20,000 bases of DNA from a bacterium (GTDB lineage: Bacteria; UBP15; UBA6099; JAJRTR01). Every line of letters starts with the position of its first letter. Within the stretch, counting starts at the first letter, position 1. Below the pieces are notes generated by a model. The model saw only the letters and a program-made list of their open reading frames with translations, ran no database searches and was not told the origin of the DNA. A program made the translations under genes and the position numbers. Where the stretch lies: positions 46,303 through 66,302 of the forward strand of contig JAJRTR010000052.1 in the NCBI GenBank assembly GCA_024278215.1, in the 5' to 3' direction. This document shows, piece by piece, positions 7,396 through 20,000 of this stretch.

Positions 7396-10131
7396 CTACT
7401 TTTCACCATTTTTCTGCAATTCACTGAGTGTACCGCCGATACCTTGATCGTCCAGCAGTCGCAGGACCCCCTTGCTGATCTGGTCGCCCTGAGCAGCAAT
7501 ATAGACATTTGAGTTGATGAGAATGTCTTCCCTTGTCATTTCGGTAAGGTTCCTGGCGAAATCGGCGTCTTCGATGCGACTGTTGGCTGCCATGAGGTTT
7601 ATCTTCTCGACGCTGAGTTCGTCCATAACATGATAAAGTTTTCTCTCTTCGATGCCCATCGCCGCCCTGAGGTCGGACACATTATTGATGGCGTCATTGA
7701 ATTTTTTGATGGGGTCCATTCCGGTCTGTATCATAAGAGAGTCTATCTGCGGGGAAACCGAAGGGGTATAGCTGTAGACATCGGGAGCCACCACAAGATT
7801 AGCCGGCGTCGAGACCATAGTGCCGCGCACCTGTACATAAGGTTTCCCGGCGGGTGTCGTGAAGTCTGTCACACCGGAGCCGGCGGTTATAAGCTGGTCT
7901 GTCCAGTTGATGCCGTCGGAGCTTGCCCATACGTCGAATCCTGTTACTGCGTCATTGGTAACGCCGACAATACTTGCATCTATATTATCACCCACATAAG
8001 CGGGGTTGGTTCTGTAGGAACCGTTCGGCAAGTATTCGAAGAACCTGTGGCCGGTAATTTCATTGTTCCAGCCGGGATTGCTGTCAAGACTGTCCGCGAT
8101 CTGGGTTGTACCGTAGAAAATATCCATCTCATTTACGGGGCCGCCGTCTGTCCTGCCGCCGCCCATTACACGTTCGACATTCGACATGCGGAATGACGCA
8201 TCCGGCTGTGCATTGAATTTAATAGTGAATCCATCCATCTGTCCGCCGGTTGCCATGTCGCAGTAAACTTCTTCATAAGCGCCGGCCTGCGTTATATCCG
8301 AGTTCGGTATCGAATCATAATTAGTCCTGCTTCCGGTTACTCCATAAACGCCGTCCCGGTATCCGGACAACCCGGCACTTAATGCCGGTTCTCCGACACT
8401 ATCTCCCTGGTCGCCGGTCCAGTCTGTACTGAGCGTGGTTATCTCGTCGATAGTGACAGCGCCGCTGCCGTCGAATACGGAAAAGTATGATTGCCATATC
8501 ACACTGCCCAGCGCGCCCCCGCCCCAGTACCTGACGGAAACTGTATAATCGATCGAACCGTCCGTCTGTGGATTCGCCGTGTTGACACTTATAACAATGG
8601 AGTGTGTATTCGCTTTATCGGGAGAACTTGTTGTTTTTACATCGGTGCCGAGTTGCAGATATCCAGGGTTTCCGCTTGGATCGACATCGACCATGTTGTT
8701 GAGACTGCTCATCCACTCCTGTTGCGTGTCGATCAGGAGTGCTGCTCCGGTCCGGTCCGTCAGCTTGAGATTCGAGAGCCCCAGTGCATTCGCGTGCAGA
8801 TTCAGGGCCGAGAGGTTGTCTCTCCAATTATCGCCGTTATCTGAGCCAATCTGGATCGAACCGGGGTCCGACAACTGGAGTGAAAGGTCGGTGACGGCCG
8901 GTGTGCCGTACTGTACTCCGTTGCTGTTAAGCGTAATCTCGGCCCGCAGGTATCGCTGATTGTAGTCAAAAGTAGCGCCGTTGTCGGTTATGGGAAGGGC
9001 GGTCCAGTCGCCGGGGAAAGCGGGATTGCCCGTCGCGCTTTCGTAAAGAACGATCTGCGCGCCCTGTCCGCCGGTGATAATGGAGTTATAGTTGAGAACC
9101 GCCTGTCCGCCTGATGTTCTCGTGTCGATAGGGGCGGTGTAATAGGATGCGGGGTTGGCAGCGATGTCTGTGAAATATTGCGAATAGAAAACCGCCGGTC
9201 TGGTGTCGCCAAGGAGCGTGGAGCCGAAATACATTGCTACCGGTTCATTGTTTCTGTTTGTAAGCTGAAGGTCCCATTTCGAGCCGACATCGACCTCTAT
9301 GTCGACAGAAGCGAGTGTGCTGAAACTATTGGTGGCGGTTCTGTCGAAGGTAATTGTATTGCCTGCAATTACACAATTGCTGGCGTTCGAGAGGTTTGCT
9401 CCCGCTTCGAAAGTCAGCGTTCCCTTCAACTGGCCGGTACCACCGACAGTCTCACCACCGATATAGAGTCTTGCGGTATATTTTCCTGTTGTCGGGTCGT
9501 AGCCGCTGCCGGGGGCGCTGCCGTCTACCCATATATCCATCGTGTCGTCATTTATGTCGCCTATCGGATTGTTCCAGTGTGCCTGTGTGTTCCAGTCCTG
9601 ATATGCGAGCTGCACATTGCCGGGTGCGCTGTTCAGGTCTATTAAAGACGAGTCGTAAACAGCGTTGGCGGACGCCCAGTCGGCCTGGGAGTCGAAAGTA
9701 TATTGTTGGCCTGTCGCTCCGCTCAGCAGTTGTTTGCTGTTGAATGTAACCGTTTCGGAAAGCCTGTCGATTTCGGCGAGGATGGAATCGACTTCGTCCT
9801 GCATGTCCTGTATGTCCGACGAGGATAGAGTGGCTTCGTTGGATGCCCTTACGGCCAGATCGCGGCCCCGCTGCAACAGGCTGTGTATCTCTTTCATGCC
9901 GCCTTCCGCCGTCTGGATCATGGATAAAGCGTCCTGCGTGTTCTGTATCGCTGTGTTTAATCCGCCTATGGTGGCACGCAGATTCGAGGATATGGCTATT
10001 CCGTGCGGGTCGTCCGCACCGCGGTTTATCCTTAGCCCCGACGAAAGTCTTTCCTTTATCGTTCCTGTTTTAGTGAAATGAGCTCTTCTGTCGTTATTAT
10101 TGACCATGGCCCAAAGACTATTGATTTCCAT
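7396..10131 (-). CDS. Large divergent flagellin-family protein (911 aa)
   Basis: N-terminal ERLSSGLRINRGADD...NTQDALSMIQTAEGG..EIHSLLQR.RDLAVRASN...IDRLSETVTFNSKQLLSG; C-terminal AINNVSDLRAAMG...AANSRIEDADFA...VLRLL. RBS AAGGGAGA upstream. Confidence 0.93.
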   Translation of the reverse strand: MEINSLWAMVNNNDRRAHFTKTGTIKERLSSGLRINRGADDPHGIAISSNLRATIGGLNTAIQNTQDALSMIQTAEGGMKEIHSLLQRGRDLAVRASNEATLSSSDIQDMQDEVDSILAEIDRLSETVTFNSKQLLSGATGQQYTFDSQADWASANAVYDSSLIDLNSAPGNVQLAYQDWNTQAHWNNPIGDINDDTMDIWVDGSAPGSGYDPTTGKYTARLYIGGETVGGTGQLKGTLTFEAGANLSNASNCVIAGNTITFDRTATNSFSTLASVDIEVDVGSKWDLQLTNRNNEPVAMYFGSTLLGDTRPAVFYSQYFTDIAANPASYYTAPIDTRTSGGQAVLNYNSIITGGQGAQIVLYESATGNPAFPGDWTALPITDNGATFDYNQRYLRAEITLNSNGVQYGTPAVTDLSLQLSDPGSIQIGSDNGDNWRDNLSALNLHANALGLSNLKLTDRTGAALLIDTQQEWMSSLNNMVDVDPSGNPGYLQLGTDVKTTSSPDKANTHSIVISVNTANPQTDGSIDYTVSVRYWGGGALGSVIWQSYFSVFDGSGAVTIDEITTLSTDWTGDQGDSVGEPALSAGLSGYRDGVYGVTGSRTNYDSIPNSDITQAGAYEEVYCDMATGGQMDGFTIKFNAQPDASFRMSNVERVMGGGRTDGGPVNEMDIFYGTTQIADSLDSNPGWNNEITGHRFFEYLPNGSYRTNPAYVGDNIDASIVGVTNDAVTGFDVWASSDGINWTDQLITAGSGVTDFTTPAGKPYVQVRGTMVSTPANLVVAPDVYSYTPSVSPQIDSLMIQTGMDPIKKFNDAINNVSDLRAAMGIEERKLYHVMDELSVEKINLMAANSRIEDADFARNLTEMTREDILINSNVYIAAQGDQISKGVLRLLDDQGIGGTLSELQKNGEK

Positions 10132-10933: not shown

Positions 10934-12565
10934 ATGACAAGACGATATGGTTCCAACAGGAGACCGCCTGCAGGACGAGGCGGCGCTTCGTTTGCCCCCC
11001 GCTACAAAGCGGGCGCGACCAATAAGGACCACCGCGGCGATGAAATCGCAGGCGGGCGCGTTTCCAATGTTACCGAACTGCCGAAGGAAGACGCGGGCCT
11101 GCAAAGCCGCATCGAGCTGTACGAGTTCCAGTTGCGCAACCTCAGGCGCGAACTCGAACAGATAAAAATGCAGTCCATAATTGAAAACCTTGGTGGAGAA
11201 AGCGCCACCTGGCTCACCAGTGACTGCCCGGAGCCCGACTTCGACGACGATCTTTTCGACCGGGTTCTTGACTTCTCTGATCTTGACGGAAATGCTTCGT
11301 ACAACGAGATCTGCGAATATGCGGCGCACGGTTACGAGGAAGTCGACGCGCCCGAACCGGCGCTACTGCCCGCGACTACCCGTCGCAATTCCTTCCCCGG
11401 CATGACTCCCGACGCGACCGCCGCTGTTTTTAAATTGTCCGCCATGCTTTCTGAAGCGGAAACAAGGAACCGCGTGCAGGAAATCCTGATCCATCATCTT
11501 TCCGAAAAATTAAAACATACGCTGTCGGACCCGCGACCGGCACTCGCCTGTCATCTCCATGACAGGCTCGAGCCCGCTACTGTGCCGGCGGAAGCGGCTC
11601 CGCCGGAAAACAAACATAATGCCGTCCCCGATGAATTCGACGACATGCGCTTACTGGAACAGAATAATCAGCCTGTATACCTGTTCGAACTCGCTCATGC
11701 CGCGGAAATAATAATGGAAATGGAACAGCGGACAGCAGACATGCGGGAAGTGATCGAACATTCCGAAGAAGTCTGCACGCGCCTTATGGAAGAAAATGGC
11801 GCACTGGCGGCGTCGAACTCCGATTTGCGTGACCAGCTCGCGGATTTCCACAAACATATTGACCGCCATTTCTCGGAACAGCTGGAATTGATGCGGCAAC
11901 ACATGGAAGCGGAGTTCGCGAAAAAACGGGAAAATCTCGAAATGGAATTCGAGAAACTCCTCGACATGGAACGCGACTGGCGCCTTGAAATACAGAACCG
12001 TGCAGACCTCGCATCCGAAGAAGCGATAAGGTTGAAAACGGAACTTGACGAACAGAATAAACAGGTGGAAAAACTGCTTGATGAAAATGCCTACTTCCGG
12101 GTTCTCGTGCATGAATTGAAAAGGGGTGCAGACAATAGGACCGGCGCGCCGCAGAGGGAAACAGGTGCTATTCGCCCGGAAGAAGTACATGTCGAGGAGA
12201 TAGAGAAACTGATCGAAGTGCAGCCCGTGCCGCTCGATGTCTTCAAAAAGCAACTCGAAGAAGTGCTCGACGCGGCGAAGGACAACATCAACCTTGAAAC
12301 GCTACTGAGACTGCGGAAAACAATTATTCATTCGCGAAGAGCCGACGACGGAATAAACGCACTGTTGAGGTTGCTCGAAACAGACGGGAACCACGCGCTT
12401 CTGCCGTCTGTCTGTGTGCTTATCGGCGAACTATACATGACGACCGGCAGGATGGAAGAGGCGGAATATTATCTTTCGCACCCGCTGGCGGGAAACGATG
12501 CCACGGCACAGGCGCTAATGAAAAATATTCCGATGGACAGGCTGGAGAAGCGCTCCCGACAGTAA
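10934..12565 (+). CDS. Hypothetical protein with long coiled coil and C-terminal helical (TPR-like) segment
   Basis: 543-aa ORF; E/L/K/R-rich heptad region in the middle; C-terminal LIGELYMTTGRMEEAEYYL resembles a TPR helix pair. Start uncertain. Confidence 0.75.
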   Translation: MTRRYGSNRRPPAGRGGASFAPRYKAGATNKDHRGDEIAGGRVSNVTELPKEDAGLQSRIELYEFQLRNLRRELEQIKMQSIIENLGGESATWLTSDCPEPDFDDDLFDRVLDFSDLDGNASYNEICEYAAHGYEEVDAPEPALLPATTRRNSFPGMTPDATAAVFKLSAMLSEAETRNRVQEILIHHLSEKLKHTLSDPRPALACHLHDRLEPATVPAEAAPPENKHNAVPDEFDDMRLLEQNNQPVYLFELAHAAEIIMEMEQRTADMREVIEHSEEVCTRLMEENGALAASNSDLRDQLADFHKHIDRHFSEQLELMRQHMEAEFAKKRENLEMEFEKLLDMERDWRLEIQNRADLASEEAIRLKTELDEQNKQVEKLLDENAYFRVLVHELKRGADNRTGAPQRETGAIRPEEVHVEEIEKLIEVQPVPLDVFKKQLEEVLDAAKDNINLETLLRLRKTIIHSRRADDGINALLRLLETDGNHALLPSVCVLIGELYMTTGRMEEAEYYLSHPLAGNDATAQALMKNIPMDRLEKRSRQ

Positions 12566-15169: not shown

Positions 15170-15670
15170 GTGAATGAAGATTTTGTATTATGTGTAGTTC
15201 ACTGTGTGCGTTTCGATGTTTTCAATAAGGTTCCGGTCGTTCTCCTCAAGGATGTTGAAGGCGACAGGTATCTGCCGATATGGATCGGGATGTTCGAAGC
15301 CACACAGATCGAGATTGCGCTGGAAAAAGTCTCCGTTCCCCGGCCGATGAGCCATGATCTCATGAAATCCATACTGGAAACATTCCACTTGAGCGCGGAA
15401 TCGGTGAGGATTCATGATATAATAGATGGAACATTTCACGCGAAGATCATGGTGAAAAACACATCGGGCGCGGACGGCAATGAGCCTGTGGAAGTCGACG
15501 CGAGGCCAAGTGACGCCATCGCTCTTTCGCTGAGAACCGACACACCGATATATGTCGCGCGAAAAATAATAGACGAAGCGGCGATTGTCGGCAAGGTGCC
15601 GGATGACGATGAAATGCAGAAATTCAAAGAATTCCTTTCCGACATCAAGCCCGGCGACTTCCGGGACTGA
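15170..15670 (+). CDS. Bifunctional nuclease domain protein (DUF151/BFN family)
   Basis: PVVLLKD...RYLPIWIGMFEA, RPMSHDL, FHAKI, VDARPSDAIALSLRTDTPIYV, FKEFLSDIKPGDF. GTG 15170 after AGGA preferred over TTG 15134. Confidence 0.92.
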   Translation: MNEDFVLCVVHCVRFDVFNKVPVVLLKDVEGDRYLPIWIGMFEATQIEIALEKVSVPRPMSHDLMKSILETFHLSAESVRIHDIIDGTFHAKIMVKNTSGADGNEPVEVDARPSDAIALSLRTDTPIYVARKIIDEAAIVGKVPDDDEMQKFKEFLSDIKPGDFRD

Positions 15671-15731
15671 CTAAAGGCAATCCTGGAAATAGAAAGCTCA
15701 AGTGGACGCTATATAACTCAAGGAGTAGACC

Positions 15732-15926
15732 ATGTCTGTACAACCGGCTTCTTCACCAAATGACTATTATGGAGCATGGGGCGCGGCGCTCGCCCAGATA
15801 CTGTTTAATATGAGAGCGACAGCCGAGGTGCTCGCAGGCACTTATGACGAGATGGAAAAACACCAGGCACGCGCTCGCGAGACTTCATGGGAGCAAAACA
15901 TCTACAGAGTTGACATCCGGATTTAA
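15732..15926 (+). CDS. Small hypothetical protein (64 aa)
   Basis: Strong RBS AAGGAG 6 nt before ATG; same strand as neighbours; plausible helical composition. Confidence 0.65.
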   Translation: MSVQPASSPNDYYGAWGAALAQILFNMRATAEVLAGTYDEMEKHQARARETSWEQNIYRVDIRI

Positions 15927-16224
15927 GGGCCGCGAAGGAATATGACCGGAGTCCCCCTTCGGCTCTTTCCATCTCATGCGGCGGCTCCGCGCGCAACACA
16001 TTTTTCGTTCTCCGTTCATTATCAAATTCGGCGGCAGCACTTCTTTATGTCCCAATTGCTTCAATTAAACAGATAAATGTATTACCATAGTGGCTGAACG
16101 AAAACCCTAAAAGGACTATGGATAAAGGAATAATTGGCGAAAAGAGCAAACGAAGATCGGCAGAAAATATCAGGTACAAATACGAGGAAGACAGTTGTAA
16201 TCGCATGTAAGCGATGTATGGCGT

Positions 16225-16253
16225 TTGAAAAAACGCAATCTTCGCAATAAAAT
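16225..16253 (+). promoter_or_regulatory. Putative sigma70 promoter for the SepRS leader/gene
   Basis: TTGAAA-N17-TAAAAT; predicted TSS about 16260 coincides with the 5' end of a long stem. Confidence 0.6.
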
Positions 16254-16260
16254 CTTGAAA

Positions 16261-16422
16261 AGTGGTTGAGCGAAAAACTGATCCGTTAAGCCGGAATGTG
16301 TGAAAAGTGTTCGATATCGAGGCAGACGAAGGAGGCAATGCAACGCATTGTTGACTGAGGATAACGAAGATAGCGGGCAATTTGCGCACATCCCGGCAGG
16401 AGCAGGTTTCCGTTCAACCACT
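16261..16422 (+). ncRNA. Putative ~162-nt rod-shaped structured RNA (5' leader or co-transcribed ncRNA)
   Basis: Nested pairings AGUGGUUGAGCG/CGUUCAACCACU, GCCGGAAUGUG/CACAUCCCGGC, UGUUCG/CGGGCA, UAUC/GAUA, CAG/CUG, GGCAAUGC/GCAUUGUU. Most non-Watson-Crick positions are G-U on the + strand. Confidence 0.5.
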
Positions 16423-16468
16423 ACCATAAATATCTGGCGACAAAATACAGGATTGCGAAGGCTGAACT

Positions 16469-18382
16469 ATGAGACTTTTGATGATACATTCAAATCCGTT
16501 TTCATTCGAGATTACGGACAAAACAAAGTTCGCGGAAGAGATAGTGCCGCCGGTTGTGGACAGGGCTGAAGTGGATAATGCGCTCGTGGTTTTTGCCGCT
16601 GTCGAGCAGCATGATGCCGTCGAGCAGGAAAAAGTTTGCGGGAAAGCTTTCGCTGAAATAAAAAAGACATACGAGAACGTGGGTGCGTCGATAATCGCTC
16701 TGTATCCATATTCACATCTTTCCAACCGGCTCGCGCCGCCCGAAGTGTCACTGCGCCTGTTGAAAAATCTGCGTGGCCTTCTGGAAGACATGCCGCTGGT
16801 TCAGTGTCCGTTCGGATGGTATAAAAAATTCAGCCTCAACGGGATCGGGCACCCTGTGAGCGAATCGAGCAGGGTGATAGAGATCGACGGTCGCCCGCGG
16901 GAACAGAAAGTTATGGGCCGTGGCCGCGAACATCCTGTCGCCGCCATGAACCAGCAGTTCCGCGAGGTCTTCCTCGAACTCGGCCTCGACGAAATGATCA
17001 ATCCGGCGATTATCGACGACTTCCACATCTACAAACAGTACGGCCCGGAAGCGCCACTTATCCTCGACAGGGTTTTCTATATCGCGGGCCTCGACCGGGC
17101 TGATATCGGACTTGGCAAAAGCAAACTCGCAATAATAAATAAAATAGTCCCCGGATTCGACAAAGAGGAACAACTGCAAGCCCTTATGCGCGAATATAAG
17201 GAAGCTCTGATCGAGGCCGACGATTTTCTCGAAGAATTTGCCCTCAGGCTGAAAATCAGCGGCGAACAGGCCGGCGAAATCCTCGAAAAAGCATTCCCCG
17301 AATTCAGGGAATTGACGCCTGTTCCCATGACGCGCACACTGCGCTCGCACATGACAAGCAACTGGTTTCCCGTGCTCCAGCGCATGAGAACTCGATCAAC
17401 GCTGCCCGTGAAACTCTTCTCCGTGGGGTCCCGTTTCAGACGCGAGCAGCGCCAGGATGCGCAACATCTCTACGAAAGCACATCCGCGTCAATTGTTGTC
17501 ATGGACAACAATGTTACGATGGAAGACGGCAAAAAGCTGTCATACGACATCCTGAAAAAAATGGGGTTCAAGCGCTGCAAATTCGTAAAGAAAAAAGTCG
17601 CCAGCCGCTACTACGATCCGGAAACGGACACAGAGATATTCGTAAATTATAAAGGAGCACAGATCGAGGTCGGTAATCTTGGCTTCTACGCGCCGGAATC
17701 ACTCAAGAACTATGACATCGATGTGCCGGTATTCAACATCGGTTTCGGTGTCGAGCGTATGGCTATGATCCTCGGCGGCGGAACCGACATCAGAGCTCTT
17801 GTATACCCGCAATTCTATGAAGAAGTATCATTCACAGACGAAGAACTCGCCGGAATGCTCACGCCATCCGAAAAACCGAAGTCGGAAGAACTCCTGAAAG
17901 CTGTGGCCGCAATGGCAGAGCTGGCACGAAAGTCGAAAGACATCACCGGTCCCGCCGAAGTCGACCTTTTCTGCGGTGATATTCAGGGGGAAAAGGTTAC
18001 TATAACCCTGTTCAATTGGGATGCCGGCAAACCGCTTCTCAGCAAAGCCGCGGAAAACGAAATAGTAGTATATGAAAACGGCATATACGGACTCCCCCCA
18101 AAAGCAGACGCCCTGGGCGGCAAATTTGTAAAAATCTACAACAACGGAGTCAAAACAGGACTGCTCTTCATAGATATGATGATCTGCGGATTCGCAGCGC
18201 GTGTTGAAAAAGCAATCGACGCGGGCGAGACCGGGCAGCTCGAGGAAAAATGGAAAGTCGCCAAAAGACCGCAACAGGTCAATCTTGAAATACCCGAAGC
18301 CGGATACGATTACGTGCAGGGTCTGCACAAGCCCATTAAAGTCGGCGGCCCGCTTTTCTGCGGCCTTCGAGCAAAGTGGTAG
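16469..18382 (+). CDS. sepS: O-phosphoseryl-tRNA synthetase (SepRS) homologue with N-terminal archaeal-type ThrRS editing domain
   Basis: About aa 1-138: MRLLMIHS..AVE..LYPYSHLS..PFGWYKKF..GHPVSESSR (archaeal ThrRS editing domain). From about aa 149: GREHP, EMINP, YKQYGPEAPLILDRVFYIAGL, TLRSHMTSNWF, LPVKLFS..RFRREQRQD..HL..SAS, SRYYDPETDTE, VPVFNIGFGVERMAMI, YPQF, NEIVVY, GPLF (SepRS signatures). Confidence 0.9.
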   Translation: MRLLMIHSNPFSFEITDKTKFAEEIVPPVVDRAEVDNALVVFAAVEQHDAVEQEKVCGKAFAEIKKTYENVGASIIALYPYSHLSNRLAPPEVSLRLLKNLRGLLEDMPLVQCPFGWYKKFSLNGIGHPVSESSRVIEIDGRPREQKVMGRGREHPVAAMNQQFREVFLELGLDEMINPAIIDDFHIYKQYGPEAPLILDRVFYIAGLDRADIGLGKSKLAIINKIVPGFDKEEQLQALMREYKEALIEADDFLEEFALRLKISGEQAGEILEKAFPEFRELTPVPMTRTLRSHMTSNWFPVLQRMRTRSTLPVKLFSVGSRFRREQRQDAQHLYESTSASIVVMDNNVTMEDGKKLSYDILKKMGFKRCKFVKKKVASRYYDPETDTEIFVNYKGAQIEVGNLGFYAPESLKNYDIDVPVFNIGFGVERMAMILGGGTDIRALVYPQFYEEVSFTDEELAGMLTPSEKPKSEELLKAVAAMAELARKSKDITGPAEVDLFCGDIQGEKVTITLFNWDAGKPLLSKAAENEIVVYENGIYGLPPKADALGGKFVKIYNNGVKTGLLFIDMMICGFAARVEKAIDAGETGQLEEKWKVAKRPQQVNLEIPEAGYDYVQGLHKPIKVGGPLFCGLRAKW

Positions 18383-18474
18383 CGCCGTCTCATCGATGCG
18401 GGTTGACCCGCATTGGGGTGAAATATGCGGTACTGTTCAGTTGTGGTTATTATGTGGCGAGGGAGCGCCCAAAC

Positions 18475-18505
18475 GAAAAAAAGCGCCAAGGGGGGCGCTT
18501 TTTTC
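18475..18505. terminator. Bidirectional Rho-independent terminator
   Basis: AAAAAAAGCGCC-aagggg-GGCGCTTTTTT: GC stem with a T-tract on both strands (6 T on +, 7 T on -). Confidence 0.85.
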
Positions 18506-18594
18506 TGAGGTATTAGTTTTAGTATTCCCCTGTCCTCGGTATGCCGTTCGACACTTTCGATGCTTCCCTGTCTGTGTGTCTCTCAACCCAGACT
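18476..18594 (-). ncRNA. Candidate ~120-nt small RNA convergent with the SepRS gene
   Basis: Bounded by a minus-strand promoter (18602-18631) and the minus-strand face of the terminator; no AUG; 5' hairpin GUCUG/CAGAC; three GGA motifs. Confidence 0.5.
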
Positions 18595-18601
18595 GGAAGT
18601 A

Positions 18602-18631
18602 ATTATACAGGGCCGTAGCGAACATGGACAA
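18602..18631 (-). promoter_or_regulatory. Putative sigma70 promoter (minus strand)
   Basis: Minus strand TTGTCC-N18-TATAAT. Confidence 0.6.
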
Positions 18632-18666
18632 TACGGGAAACAAATCAGCAAAACAACAATGCAGTT

Positions 18667-18684
18667 TTGTGATATATTTCACAA
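18667..18684. promoter_or_regulatory. Palindromic transcription-factor site, CRP-like or Rex-like
   Basis: TTGTGATATATTTCACAA contains an exact TGTGA-N6-TCACA (CRP consensus) and is one mismatch from TTGTGAA-N4-TTCACAA (Rex consensus). Confidence 0.65.
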
Positions 18685-19075
18685 TCTACGGACAGACAGG
18701 CAAGTATCAATAACATTCACAGGCAGCCGTCAACATAAACTCCATAGGCGCGTTGAGTATCGTGTCAACGATGAAAAGACGCAACCCGGATTTCTCACAA
18801 AGAAATCCGGAAAATCGCGAGAACCCCCATTCTACTGCGTTGCGTCGGCGATTCGGGATCGGTCACATACCTGCAGTATGCTCCCTCACCATTCACTTGC
18901 CGCGCCTTGCATATCTTGCGTATTTACAAGTGCTACACGAAAGTAGTGCATACACACATTTTTCATCGTTTTGAGGTTAATGACTGGAATAAATTACAGA
19001 CCGGCCCTGCGTGTCTTTATAGGAAAAACTGAATTCTGACAAAAATTCAGAAACGAACATGTTCAGTTGCAAATA

Positions 19076-19084
19076 TGCTATAAT
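19076..19084 (+). promoter_or_regulatory. Extended -10 promoter element upstream of the secreted repeat protein
   Basis: TGcTATAAT in an AT-rich region about 85 nt before ATG 19169. Confidence 0.55.
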
Positions 19085-19168
19085 AAATGTATGATTAGCA
19101 GGTTTTTCCTATTATCCCATAATATCCAGAATGCTATTTTAACAATCAGTTTTCCGGGGAGTTCAAGG

Positions 19169-20000
19169 ATGAAATACTTTAAGGTAATATTTATTTTATT
19201 TTTAATATCTACCGCCGCAACAACTGCTTATGCGGCTGTTCCCGCCCTGATAAATTACCAGGGGCATCTCAAGGAAAGCGGTTCGGCGGTCAGCGGGACA
19301 AAAAACATCGAATTCAAGTTATATGATGCGCTGTCGGGCGGCTCGGAGTTGTGCGCGTCCGGTGCGCAGAGCTTAACAGTCACAAACGGACTGTTCTCGT
19401 ATAAAATCGGCTCTTCCGGTTGCGACTTGACTGCCGTTGACCTGAGCAGTGCTGTCTATCTCGAGATCATTGTCGAAGGCACTACCCTTTCACCAAGGGA
19501 ACAGGTGACAGGTGCGGCATATTCTGTCGAAACGGAAGCGGTAAACGTGGAATTCACACCATCCGGGGGGCTGTCCGCGACAGATGTTCAATCCGCGATT
19601 GAAGAACTCGATGCTGAAAAGCTTTCCGCCGCCGGCGATGCAATGACCAGCGACCTGAACGTCGGCGCGAATGTGCTTGTAGCAGGTGACATCACGGCAG
19701 CGACGGGAACGATTTCGGCGGCGAGTTTCTCCGGCGACGGCAGCGCACTCACGGGTATCAGTTCGACAGACAATACGAAAGTGCTGAAAACCGGTGACGT
19801 AATGACGGGCGACCTCGAAGTGAATTCCGACATAATTGCATCGGGCAATATTACGGCAGCGACGGGAACGATTTCGGCGAATGCTTTCTCCGGCGACGGT
19901 TCAGCTTTAACAGGGATAGTTGTATCAGGTTCTGTTGCGAAAACCGGCGACGCGATGACAGGCGATCTGAATGTCGGCGCGAATGTGCTTGTAGCAGGTG
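19169..20000 (+). CDS. Secreted tail-fibre/adhesin-like repeat protein (3' truncated by window; absent from the ORF track)
   Basis: Open from ATG 19169 to the window end. MKYFKVIFILFLISTAATTAYA signal peptide, AVPALINYQGHL..FKLYDALSGG..GLFS..YLEI..LSPR domain, then 51-53 aa repeats GDxMTxDL...ITAATGTISAxxFSGDGSALTGI. RBS GGGGAG upstream. Confidence 0.85.
   Translation, partial: MKYFKVIFILFLISTAATTAYAAVPALINYQGHLKESGSAVSGTKNIEFKLYDALSGGSELCASGAQSLTVTNGLFSYKIGSSGCDLTAVDLSSAVYLEIIVEGTTLSPREQVTGAAYSVETEAVNVEFTPSGGLSATDVQSAIEELDAEKLSAAGDAMTSDLNVGANVLVAGDITAATGTISAASFSGDGSALTGISSTDNTKVLKTGDVMTGDLEVNSDIIASGNITAATGTISANAFSGDGSALTGIVVSGSVAKTGDAMTGDLNVGANVLVAG

Follow-up and report, generated by a model that had tools for sequence, protein, structure and literature searches.

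The 20,000-nucleotide stretch of bacterial DNA analysed here (contig JAJRTR010000052.1 of assembly GCA_024278215.1, forward-strand positions 46,303 to 66,302; hereafter 'the window') carries sepS, a gene for a 637-residue protein in which an editing domain (ED) of the archaeal threonyl-tRNA synthetase (ThrRS) type stands in front of a phosphoseryl-tRNA synthetase (SepRS). The reading that we prefer, at a probability of roughly 0.6 and drawn from comparisons of sequence, is that the fused ED would proofread in cis, removing serine from Ser-tRNACys. Both the architecture of the fusion and the proofreading hypothesis are already in print (Mukai 2017, 2022); what is likely to be new here is the breadth over which the fusion occurs, its likely single origin, the statistics of the editing pocket, a change at position 82 of that pocket and the genomic context.

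Domain identities and the editing pocket

Working along the protein from its N-terminus, we see that it begins (MRLLMIHS) in the manner of archaeal ThrRS editing domains, and that residues 1–137 match the Pfam family PF08915 (tRNA-Thr_ED) over the full span of the model (1–137; E 6.4e-37, 127.1 bits against a cut-off of 30.2). The same residues match the ThrRS editing domains 4rrf, 1y2q and 2hl1 in the Protein Data Bank (PDB), with E-values of ~1e-23 to 1e-25 (8e-25 for 4rrf). A DTD-like fold is seen in an AlphaFold2 (AF2) model, built from 38 fusion sequences, which superposes on 4rrf_E of Methanocaldococcus jannaschii with a target-normalised template-modelling (TM) score of 0.92 and a root-mean-square deviation of 1.3 Å over 140 columns. 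The preliminary description of this DNA, made from its letters, had picked out a 637-residue open reading frame (ORF) with three editing motifs at its start; these are found at residues 79–85 (YPYSHLS), 114–119 (PFGWYK) and 127–135 (GHPVSESSR), and its naming of the N-terminal part as an archaeal ThrRS-type editing domain is borne out by the complete Pfam match, by the solved structures and by the residues of the pocket.

That pocket can be read against the one in Pyrococcus abyssi, where, in the account given by Ahmad 2015 (PMC4491819), the scissile bond is ringed by Pro80, Phe81, Ala82, His83, Tyr120, Lys121 and Glu134, with position 82 lying within 6 Å of the bond. The same account has H83A inactivating the P. 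abyssi domain (the equivalent change in A. pernix retaining moderate activity) and K121M causing loss of function, with Y120A and E134A remaining active—the side chains of these last two residues being dispensable for editing. In the window protein, His83, Tyr118, Lys119 and Glu132 occupy the places of P. abyssi His83, Tyr120, Lys121 and Glu134. Across an alignment of 199 editing domains (51 fused to SepRS, plus 148 others) the four residues are widely retained by the fused set: His in 49/51, Tyr in 46/51, Lys in 49/51 and Glu in 45/51. The fused proteins diverge down to 36% identity over their whole length, and retention of the pocket across all 51 domains points to selection acting upon it. 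Position 82 is where the fused set departs: 31 of its 51 members carry a hydroxyl residue (26 Ser, 5 Thr) and 18 carry Ala, whereas the 148 other domains have Ala or Val, bar two with Ser and one with Asn.

The remainder of the protein is assigned to SepRS by the NCBI's curated equivalog model (NCBIfam sepS, TIGR00470), and not to phenylalanyl-tRNA synthetase (PheRS): residues 151–636 match model positions 43–531 of 533 with 440.2 bits against a cut-off of 380.65. Both profiles proposed in the preliminary description for a hidden Markov model search, sepS and tRNA-Thr_ED, thus exceed their cut-offs, and those for PheRS-alpha do not. An identity as PheRS-alpha or as pyrrolysyl-tRNA synthetase (PylRS) is ruled out by scores far beneath the respective cut-offs (pheS, 84.6 bits against 237.45; PylS_Cterm, 38.1 against 178.15). 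SepRS structures in the PDB match with E-values of 1e-109 to 1e-94, their alignments starting at chain residues 42–54; the best of them, 2du7 (E 1.4e-109), pairs query residues 143–633 with chain residues 47–544. The fusion lacks the ~46 residues with which canonical SepRS begins, and the claim that the usual N-terminal extension has been replaced holds at the level of both model and structure, alignments beginning at TIGR00470 position 43 and at 2du7 chain residue 47. A Foldseek search with the AF2 model returns the SepRS of Archaeoglobus fulgidus (2du3_A, E 5e-47) as its top match. The anticodon-binding part is present at the other end, where the sepS match stops just short of the model's end (531 of 533) and the alignments of PDB SepRS chains extend as far as query residues 633–636; taken alone, the Pfam family SepRS_C falls under its cut-off (22.9 against 26.9 bits). 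The Asn-X-Gly motif, described as perfectly conserved in SepRS (Mukai 2022, section 3.3.1), is also in place, its Asn423 and Gly425 being conserved in at least 90% of the 38 fusions.

Between the two modules lies a short linker for which the AF2 model gives a predicted local distance difference test (pLDDT) score below 50 at residues 141–151, a low-confidence tether that is consistent with flexibility. Elsewhere the model is confident: pLDDT averages 88.4 over the whole and lies at 90–95 in ED residues 1–120, with a predicted TM (pTM) score of 0.51. Coordinates for all features are collected below, contigs of the window's own genome being numbered with the prefix C.

Table 1. Features of the sepS gene and its product, with a hairpin found beyond the gene and the tRNAThr genes of the same genome; positions are those of the window unless a contig is named.
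Feature	Position	Strand	Basis or remark
sepS gene, 637-residue ED–SepRS fusion	16469..18382	+	single uninterrupted ORF; stop codon 18380-18382
Archaeal ThrRS-type (DTD-like) ED, residues 1–137	16469..16879	+	PF08915, 4rrf, AF2 superposition
Codons Pro80-Tyr81-Ser82-His83, pocket strand equivalent to P. abyssi Pro80-Phe81-Ala82-His83	16706..16717	+	alignment to 1y2q
Codons Trp117-Tyr118-Lys119, equivalent to P. abyssi Tyr119-Tyr120-Lys121	16817..16825	+	alignment
Codon Glu132, equivalent to P. abyssi cross-subunit Glu134	16862..16864	+	alignment
Linker, residues 138–150 (~13 residues)	16880..16918	+	gap between end of Pfam ED match (137) and start of sepS model (151)
SepRS body (catalytic, insertion and anticodon-binding parts), residues 151–637	16919..18379	+	TIGR00470, PDB, Foldseek
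Class II (PheRS-alpha-like) catalytic core, residues 239–450	17183..17818	+	PF01409 (tRNA-synt_2d), E 1.1e-41
Asn423-Ile424-Gly425, Asn-X-Gly motif of the Sep pocket	17735..17743	+	NLG at the aligned place in M. jannaschii SepRS
Terminator-like hairpin AGCGCC, 6-nt loop, GGCGCT, then T5	18482..18504	+	by eye; weak; 100 nt past the stop codon
tRNAThr genes	C193:320-394, C193:650-723, C199:3148-3221		all U73

Spread and descent of the fusion

That the ORF might be a chimera, misassembly or contamination having put a piece of archaeal DNA into a bacterial contig, is suggested by the archaeal type of both its domains and by the state of the assembly, which comprises 207 contigs (4.55 Mb, 95% complete, 1.3% contamination; the window lies on contig 22). 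Against this, PF08915 and PF01409 occur together in 42 of the best 120 cluster representatives listed (NCBI, JGI, ENA and Logan), the fusion is found in 9 of the 13 genomes of the window's order (two of these copies being cut by contig ends), flagellin and two-component genes of bacterial type lie on the contig and the GC content is even over the window. Misassembly is ruled out by the recurrence of the same junction on independent contigs, leaving the chimera so improbable that it can be set aside; the statement in the preliminary description that the fusion sits in a bacterial genome agrees with the bacterial neighbours on the contig. A SepRS-grade match was absent from the 28 more distant genomes searched and, as the next nearest kinship after the same order is the same domain, the order stands alone among the genomes sampled.

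We placed the window's ED on a tree of 199 rows and 142 columns from a quick IQ-TREE run, the set being made up of the best 150 matches to the fused ED, the SepRS matches and the loci of the order (a biased sampling), omitting the window's duplicate, P0001, and any row that spanned under 120 positions of the profile; support values for this tree and for the one that follows come from quick searches. The fused ED of the window falls in a supported clade of 27 fused rows (96), and the ED of the host's own ThrRS is placed among the EDs that ThrRS carries in related genomes (97). As the two stand in separate clades, a recent duplication of the host's own thrS domain is ruled out as the source of the fusion. 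On the free tree the fused rows require three label changes; a tree that holds all 51 fused EDs together lies 30.7 log-likelihood units above the free quick tree, with a p-value of 0.724 in the approximately unbiased test (p-AU). A single origin of the fused EDs fits these results and is not rejected.

The tree of the SepRS core (123 rows, built around the best 120 matches listed, one short row dropped) shows four clades around an unresolved centre. Clade A (support 100) holds the window protein within 25 fused rows and one N-terminally partial row; clade B comprises 15 fused rows and two proteins of ~900 residues; clade C has 16 forms that start at the core within their first 9 residues, together with five fused rows; and clade D contains 59 canonical forms with the extension, those with names belonging to archaea and to Poribacteria and Firestonebacteria. 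Groups in the ED tree mirror core clades A and B and the fused members of C. The fusion has been retained vertically over a long period, and the mirrored groupings fit a history in which an old fusion would have diversified along with the enzyme and would later have been lost or replaced in places.

The two ~900-residue proteins of clade B, P0044 (903 residues) and P0064 (911 residues), both from metagenomes, each have an N-terminal SepCysS (Aminotran_5/SepSecS, ~66–377) followed by SepRS from ~410, and they recur on several contigs (clusters of two and five members respectively). In the core tree they nest among ED–SepRS proteins (96 and 99), and we found no mention of a SepCysS–SepRS fusion in main-text passages of Mukai 2017 and 2022 or in a literature search. 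Their nested position marks the N-terminus as a place of attachment for enzymes that act on the aminoacyl end of tRNACys. A further metagenomic protein, P0139 (840 residues), has a ThrRS-type ED (1–139) followed by MBG_2 and cadherin-like domains, an unusual combination that may be an artefact of gene calling.

Pathway genes, tRNAs and the proposed role of the fused domain

The preliminary description had named SepCysS, cysS and tRNACys among the genes to seek in the genome, and all three are found: a SepCysS (516.8 bits, above the cut-off) adjoining a pyridoxal-phosphate enzyme of Cys/Met metabolism, a cysteinyl-tRNA synthetase (CysRS; 411.4 bits, above the cut-off) and a pair of non-identical tRNACys(GCA) genes (C6:58203-58275 and C135:8112-8185), each having U73 and A37. 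The genome also has cysK (479.8 bits), which adjoins a cysE-like gene (165 bits, under the cut-off); the indirect route to Cys-tRNACys accordingly runs alongside direct charging and the usual synthesis of cysteine. Within the order, 10 of the 13 genomes have SepCysS and 12 have CysRS. The pairing of SepRS with SepCysS is broken in three incomplete genomes, one having SepRS only (G010, 73% complete) and two SepCysS only (G004, 78%; G012, 88%). Genome G001, of the window's own family and 94% complete, is without SepRS and SepCysS and keeps the ED of ThrRS.

Two of these genes merit separate comment. A second SepCysS homologue, of 397 residues (338.6 bits, under the cut-off), belongs to a run of genes on contig C121 (locus L041:5149-8678, minus strand) that includes a DUF169 protein and a PALP enzyme with a Cys-rich, zinc-ribbon-like start; homologues of similar score occur in G002, G004 and G005. 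The CysRS gene (C16:13333-14715, locus L007) scores below ten relatives, which reach 484–533 bits on the cysS model, and that of G006 gives a partial match of 298 bits, or 373.7 when its neighbours in frame are included. The scores suggest that CysRS may be divergent, or may have been replaced, in a genome that also keeps SepRS.

The discriminator base U73 is carried by 2/2 tRNACys, 3/3 tRNAThr and 4/4 tRNAGly genes of the window's genome. For tRNAThr, U73 is the archaeal rather than the usual bacterial discriminator. The sole ThrRS found is itself of archaeal type (631 residues, with ED, class II core and anticodon-binding domain; locus L010:7-1902, minus strand, on contig C196) and carries its own, intact ED; a bacterial-type thrS was not found in the genome, and archaeal-type ThrRS occurs in 9 of the 13 genomes of the order. 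A third ED is free-standing: a paralogue of 141 residues (PF08915, E 3e-36) at locus L012:1489-1914, minus strand (C22:42358-42771), ~3.5 kb before the start of the window, between a nitroreductase-like ORF and an unannotated ORF of 181 residues, both named from their sequences. Its pocket has Phe-Asn for Tyr-Lys and Arg for the cross-subunit Glu, three changes shared by a protein of G004, from another family (the two forming a sister pair with support 99 on a stem of 1.3), and by none of the other 197 domains. As K121M abolishes editing by the P. abyssi domain in the account cited above, this paralogue probably has another role. According to Mukai 2022, citing Novoa 2015, the ED relies on U73, and the fusion was suggested there to restrain the ED, since bacterial tRNAGly also has U73; the sharing of U73 seen here, and a lone free ED without the pocket Lys and Glu, are compatible with that idea.

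Mukai 2017 (mBio, PMC5424206) proposed that Sep-tRNACys may lose its phosphate and that the resulting Ser-tRNACys is then edited, whether in cis or in trans. In the form that we favour, SepRS would charge tRNACys (GCA, U73, A37) with phosphoserine, and SepCysS, encoded elsewhere in the genome, would turn Sep-tRNACys into Cys-tRNACys. Ser-tRNACys could come from loss of the phosphate of Sep-tRNACys, or from occasional charging with serine, and the tethered ED would hydrolyse it on SepRS, either before its release or on rebinding, so keeping cysteine codons from being read as serine. The charging with Sep, the deacylase activity of the ED, its substrate and its action in cis are what we infer; the conserved pocket, the tether, the U73 of tRNACys, the co-diversification of ED and core and the presence of SepCysS at the same N-terminal position all argue for them.

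Several points weigh on the other side. We found no biochemical test of an ED–SepRS in open-access PMC and bioRxiv, in keeping with the statement in the preliminary description that such fusions had been noted, as they were by Mukai 2017 and 2022, and are not known to have been characterised biochemically. The indirect route is not essential in this genome, given the presence of CysRS, cysK and the cysE-like gene, which makes a pressure for proofreading less evident, and the ED is dispensable for SepRS as such, given the 16 SepRS of clade C that are without an N-terminal module. At least one of the four pocket sites is altered in eight of the 51 fused domains, and three (P0047, P0048 and P0146) are degenerate at several pocket positions. 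Conservation of the residues equivalent to Tyr120 and Glu134 is weaker evidence than it appears, since their side chains are dispensable; in the account of Ahmad 2015 only the equivalents of His83 and Lys121 were shown to matter for editing. Finally, a pTM of 0.51 is what one would see for two well-predicted modules with no fixed arrangement relative to each other.

Some of these same observations lend themselves to a mainly structural role, in which the ED would be a dimerising or tRNA-acceptor-binding module that replaces the extension, with hydrolysis irrelevant or lost: the ED stands exactly where the canonical extension is missing, the three proteins with degenerate pockets still retain the domain, and solved EDs, which use a cross-subunit Glu and so act as dimers (Ahmad 2015), would be joined to a SepRS that is tetrameric. 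We consider such a role unlikely, as the His83 and Lys119 equivalents each persist in 49 of 51 fused domains despite the divergence of the proteins that bear them, and as the clade C enzymes without any N-terminal module indicate that no structural replacement is required. It is improbable, too, that the fused ED acts in trans on Ser-tRNAThr or another U73 tRNA, as a second proofreader for ThrRS. Its pocket is of the ThrRS type and every tRNAThr and tRNAGly gene of the genome shares the discriminator, but the only ThrRS found already has an intact ED, the fused EDs form a group of their own that tracks the SepRS core rather than ThrRS, and G001 keeps the ThrRS ED in a genome without SepRS and SepCysS.

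The position-82 change bears on a different possibility, namely that the fused ED has been retuned to hydrolyse Cys-tRNACys or Sep-tRNACys, so that the SepRS/SepCysS pair would free cysteine, or clear stalled intermediates, whilst CysRS decodes. The Ser or Thr that 31 of 51 fused domains have beside the catalytic His (2 of 148 others have Ser), at a site so close to the scissile bond in P. abyssi; the near equality of Cys and Ser in size; and a genome with CysRS and two distinct tRNACys genes would all suit it. Yet Ala82 is kept in 18 of the 51, cysK and the cysE-like gene lie side by side such that a route of this kind is not needed, and hydrolysing the pathway's own product would be wasteful; we accordingly rate it as quite improbable. 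In its more general form, a long shot, the fused ED would be a lineage-specific retuned hydrolase, SepRS/SepCysS would use tRNA to supply free cysteine or sulfur in CysRS-bearing bacteria instead of serving decoding, and the N-terminus of SepRS would be an exchangeable slot, occupied by the ED in most lineages, by SepCysS in two and by nothing in others.

Cis-proofreading of Ser-tRNACys is thus the reading that we carry forward. What the preliminary description led one to expect of the fusion in silico was found throughout, and its interpretation, so far as sequences can speak to it, is partly supported. If the editing is real, this would be an aminoacyl-tRNA synthetase of an indirect pathway that proofreads what its own intermediate decays to. 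Incorporation of phosphoserine into proteins relies on SepRS as its standard enzyme, and a natural Ser-clearing module could, on the same proviso, be useful in such SepRS-based systems. Conceptually the window brings nothing new, since architecture and hypothesis are published; it is useful as a complete and well-assembled example of the fusion, in a genome (95% complete) that supplies the cognate tRNAs, SepCysS, CysRS and, as an internal control, the ED of the host ThrRS. With 51 fused domains compared, the fusion is far commoner than the three fused variants described in the text of Mukai 2022, which extended the fusion and the Ser-tRNACys editing hypothesis.

Surroundings of sepS and relation to known systems

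The genes around sepS in the window are of bacterial kinds and encode response regulators, PAS histidine kinases, a regulator of the NarL type and a flagellin, together with a glycosyltransferase and a methyltransferase. Of the neighbourhood sketched in the preliminary description, the flagellin and the NarL-type regulator are found; the sigma-28 promoter is not, a search of the window for TAAA-N14-16-GCCGATA giving no matches, and a lone CGATAA hexamer stands at 10250-10245 (minus strand), 114 nt before the flagellin start. A conserved operon is ruled out, as only sepS matched any of the 12 window proteins in eight loci from relatives (six places, two having been fetched twice). Rfam gave no matches over the whole window, and hence no riboswitch or T-box before sepS; a promoter and terminator scan of 15600-19100 found no more sites than in shuffled sequence, and the consensus scan raised no flag at the hairpin 3' of sepS listed in Table 1. 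A search for sequencing runs from which expression might be read listed none.

Further observations concern other genes of the window. The flagellin (7396-10131, minus strand) is unusually long at 911 residues; the helical regions at its two ends are normal, and the ~670 residues between them have no Pfam match. Between it and a family-2 glycosyltransferase lies an ORF of 543 residues (10934-12565, plus strand) with no Pfam match at E ≤0.001. An ORF at 19067-19999 (plus strand), which runs past the window end, has a signal-like start and repeats (GDAMTGDLNVGANVLVAGDITAATGTISA..FSGDGSALTGI) weakly matched by the Chlorovirus glycoprotein repeat.

The closest published relative is the SepRS homologue OQA87054.1 of bacterium ADurb.Bin236, reported with an extra N-terminal domain by Mukai 2017. 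It aligns with the window protein along the full 637 residues at 64% identity and without gaps. It is also a member of P0011's 90% cluster, and the ED of P0011 is the same, residue for residue, as the one in G007, a genome of the window's order; together, the gapless identity and this link make the window gene an orthologue of the published one. Both proteins consist of ED, linker and SepRS without the N-terminal extension, and both belong to core clade A (100). The published protein comes from another family of the order, and the window's genome adds the free ED paralogue with its altered pocket; in the enzyme itself there is nothing different. The text of Mukai 2022 gives the fusion a 20-residue linker and a conserved serine-recognition motif, and counts ED-bearing proteins without the N-terminal extension as SepRS.

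Compared with canonical archaeal SepRS (M. jannaschii 2DU7/5X6C, M. maripaludis 2ODR and A. fulgidus 2DU3), the catalytic, insertion and anticodon-binding parts align throughout and the Asn-X-Gly motif is common to both; the fusion differs in that the ED replaces the first ~46 residues, and its genome in that tRNACys has A37, not G37, and in that CysRS coexists. With the ED of archaeal ThrRS (P. abyssi 1Y2Q/2HL1 and M. jannaschii 4RRF; PMC4491819) the fused domain shares its fold and pocket residues, but the former is borne by ThrRS and has Ala82, whereas the latter is borne by SepRS, has Ser82 and forms a group separate from the ED of the host ThrRS.

Two further systems offer looser parallels. 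Free-standing tRNA-Thr-ED genes that lie by clade VII SepCysS genes in Euryarchaeota, as described by Mukai 2017, share with the fused ED its domain family, pathway and proposed role, there in trans; they are separate archaeal genes, unlike the fusion in the window, and we liken them on that description only. In the transsulfursome of SepRS, SepCysE and SepCysS (Chen 2017, PMC5688128), a partner that acts on the 3' end of tRNACys is likewise kept at SepRS via flexible linkers, of ~10 residues; in that complex SepCysS is the partner and a separate adapter protein does the tethering, whereas in the window fusion the tether is covalent and the partner a predicted deacylase.

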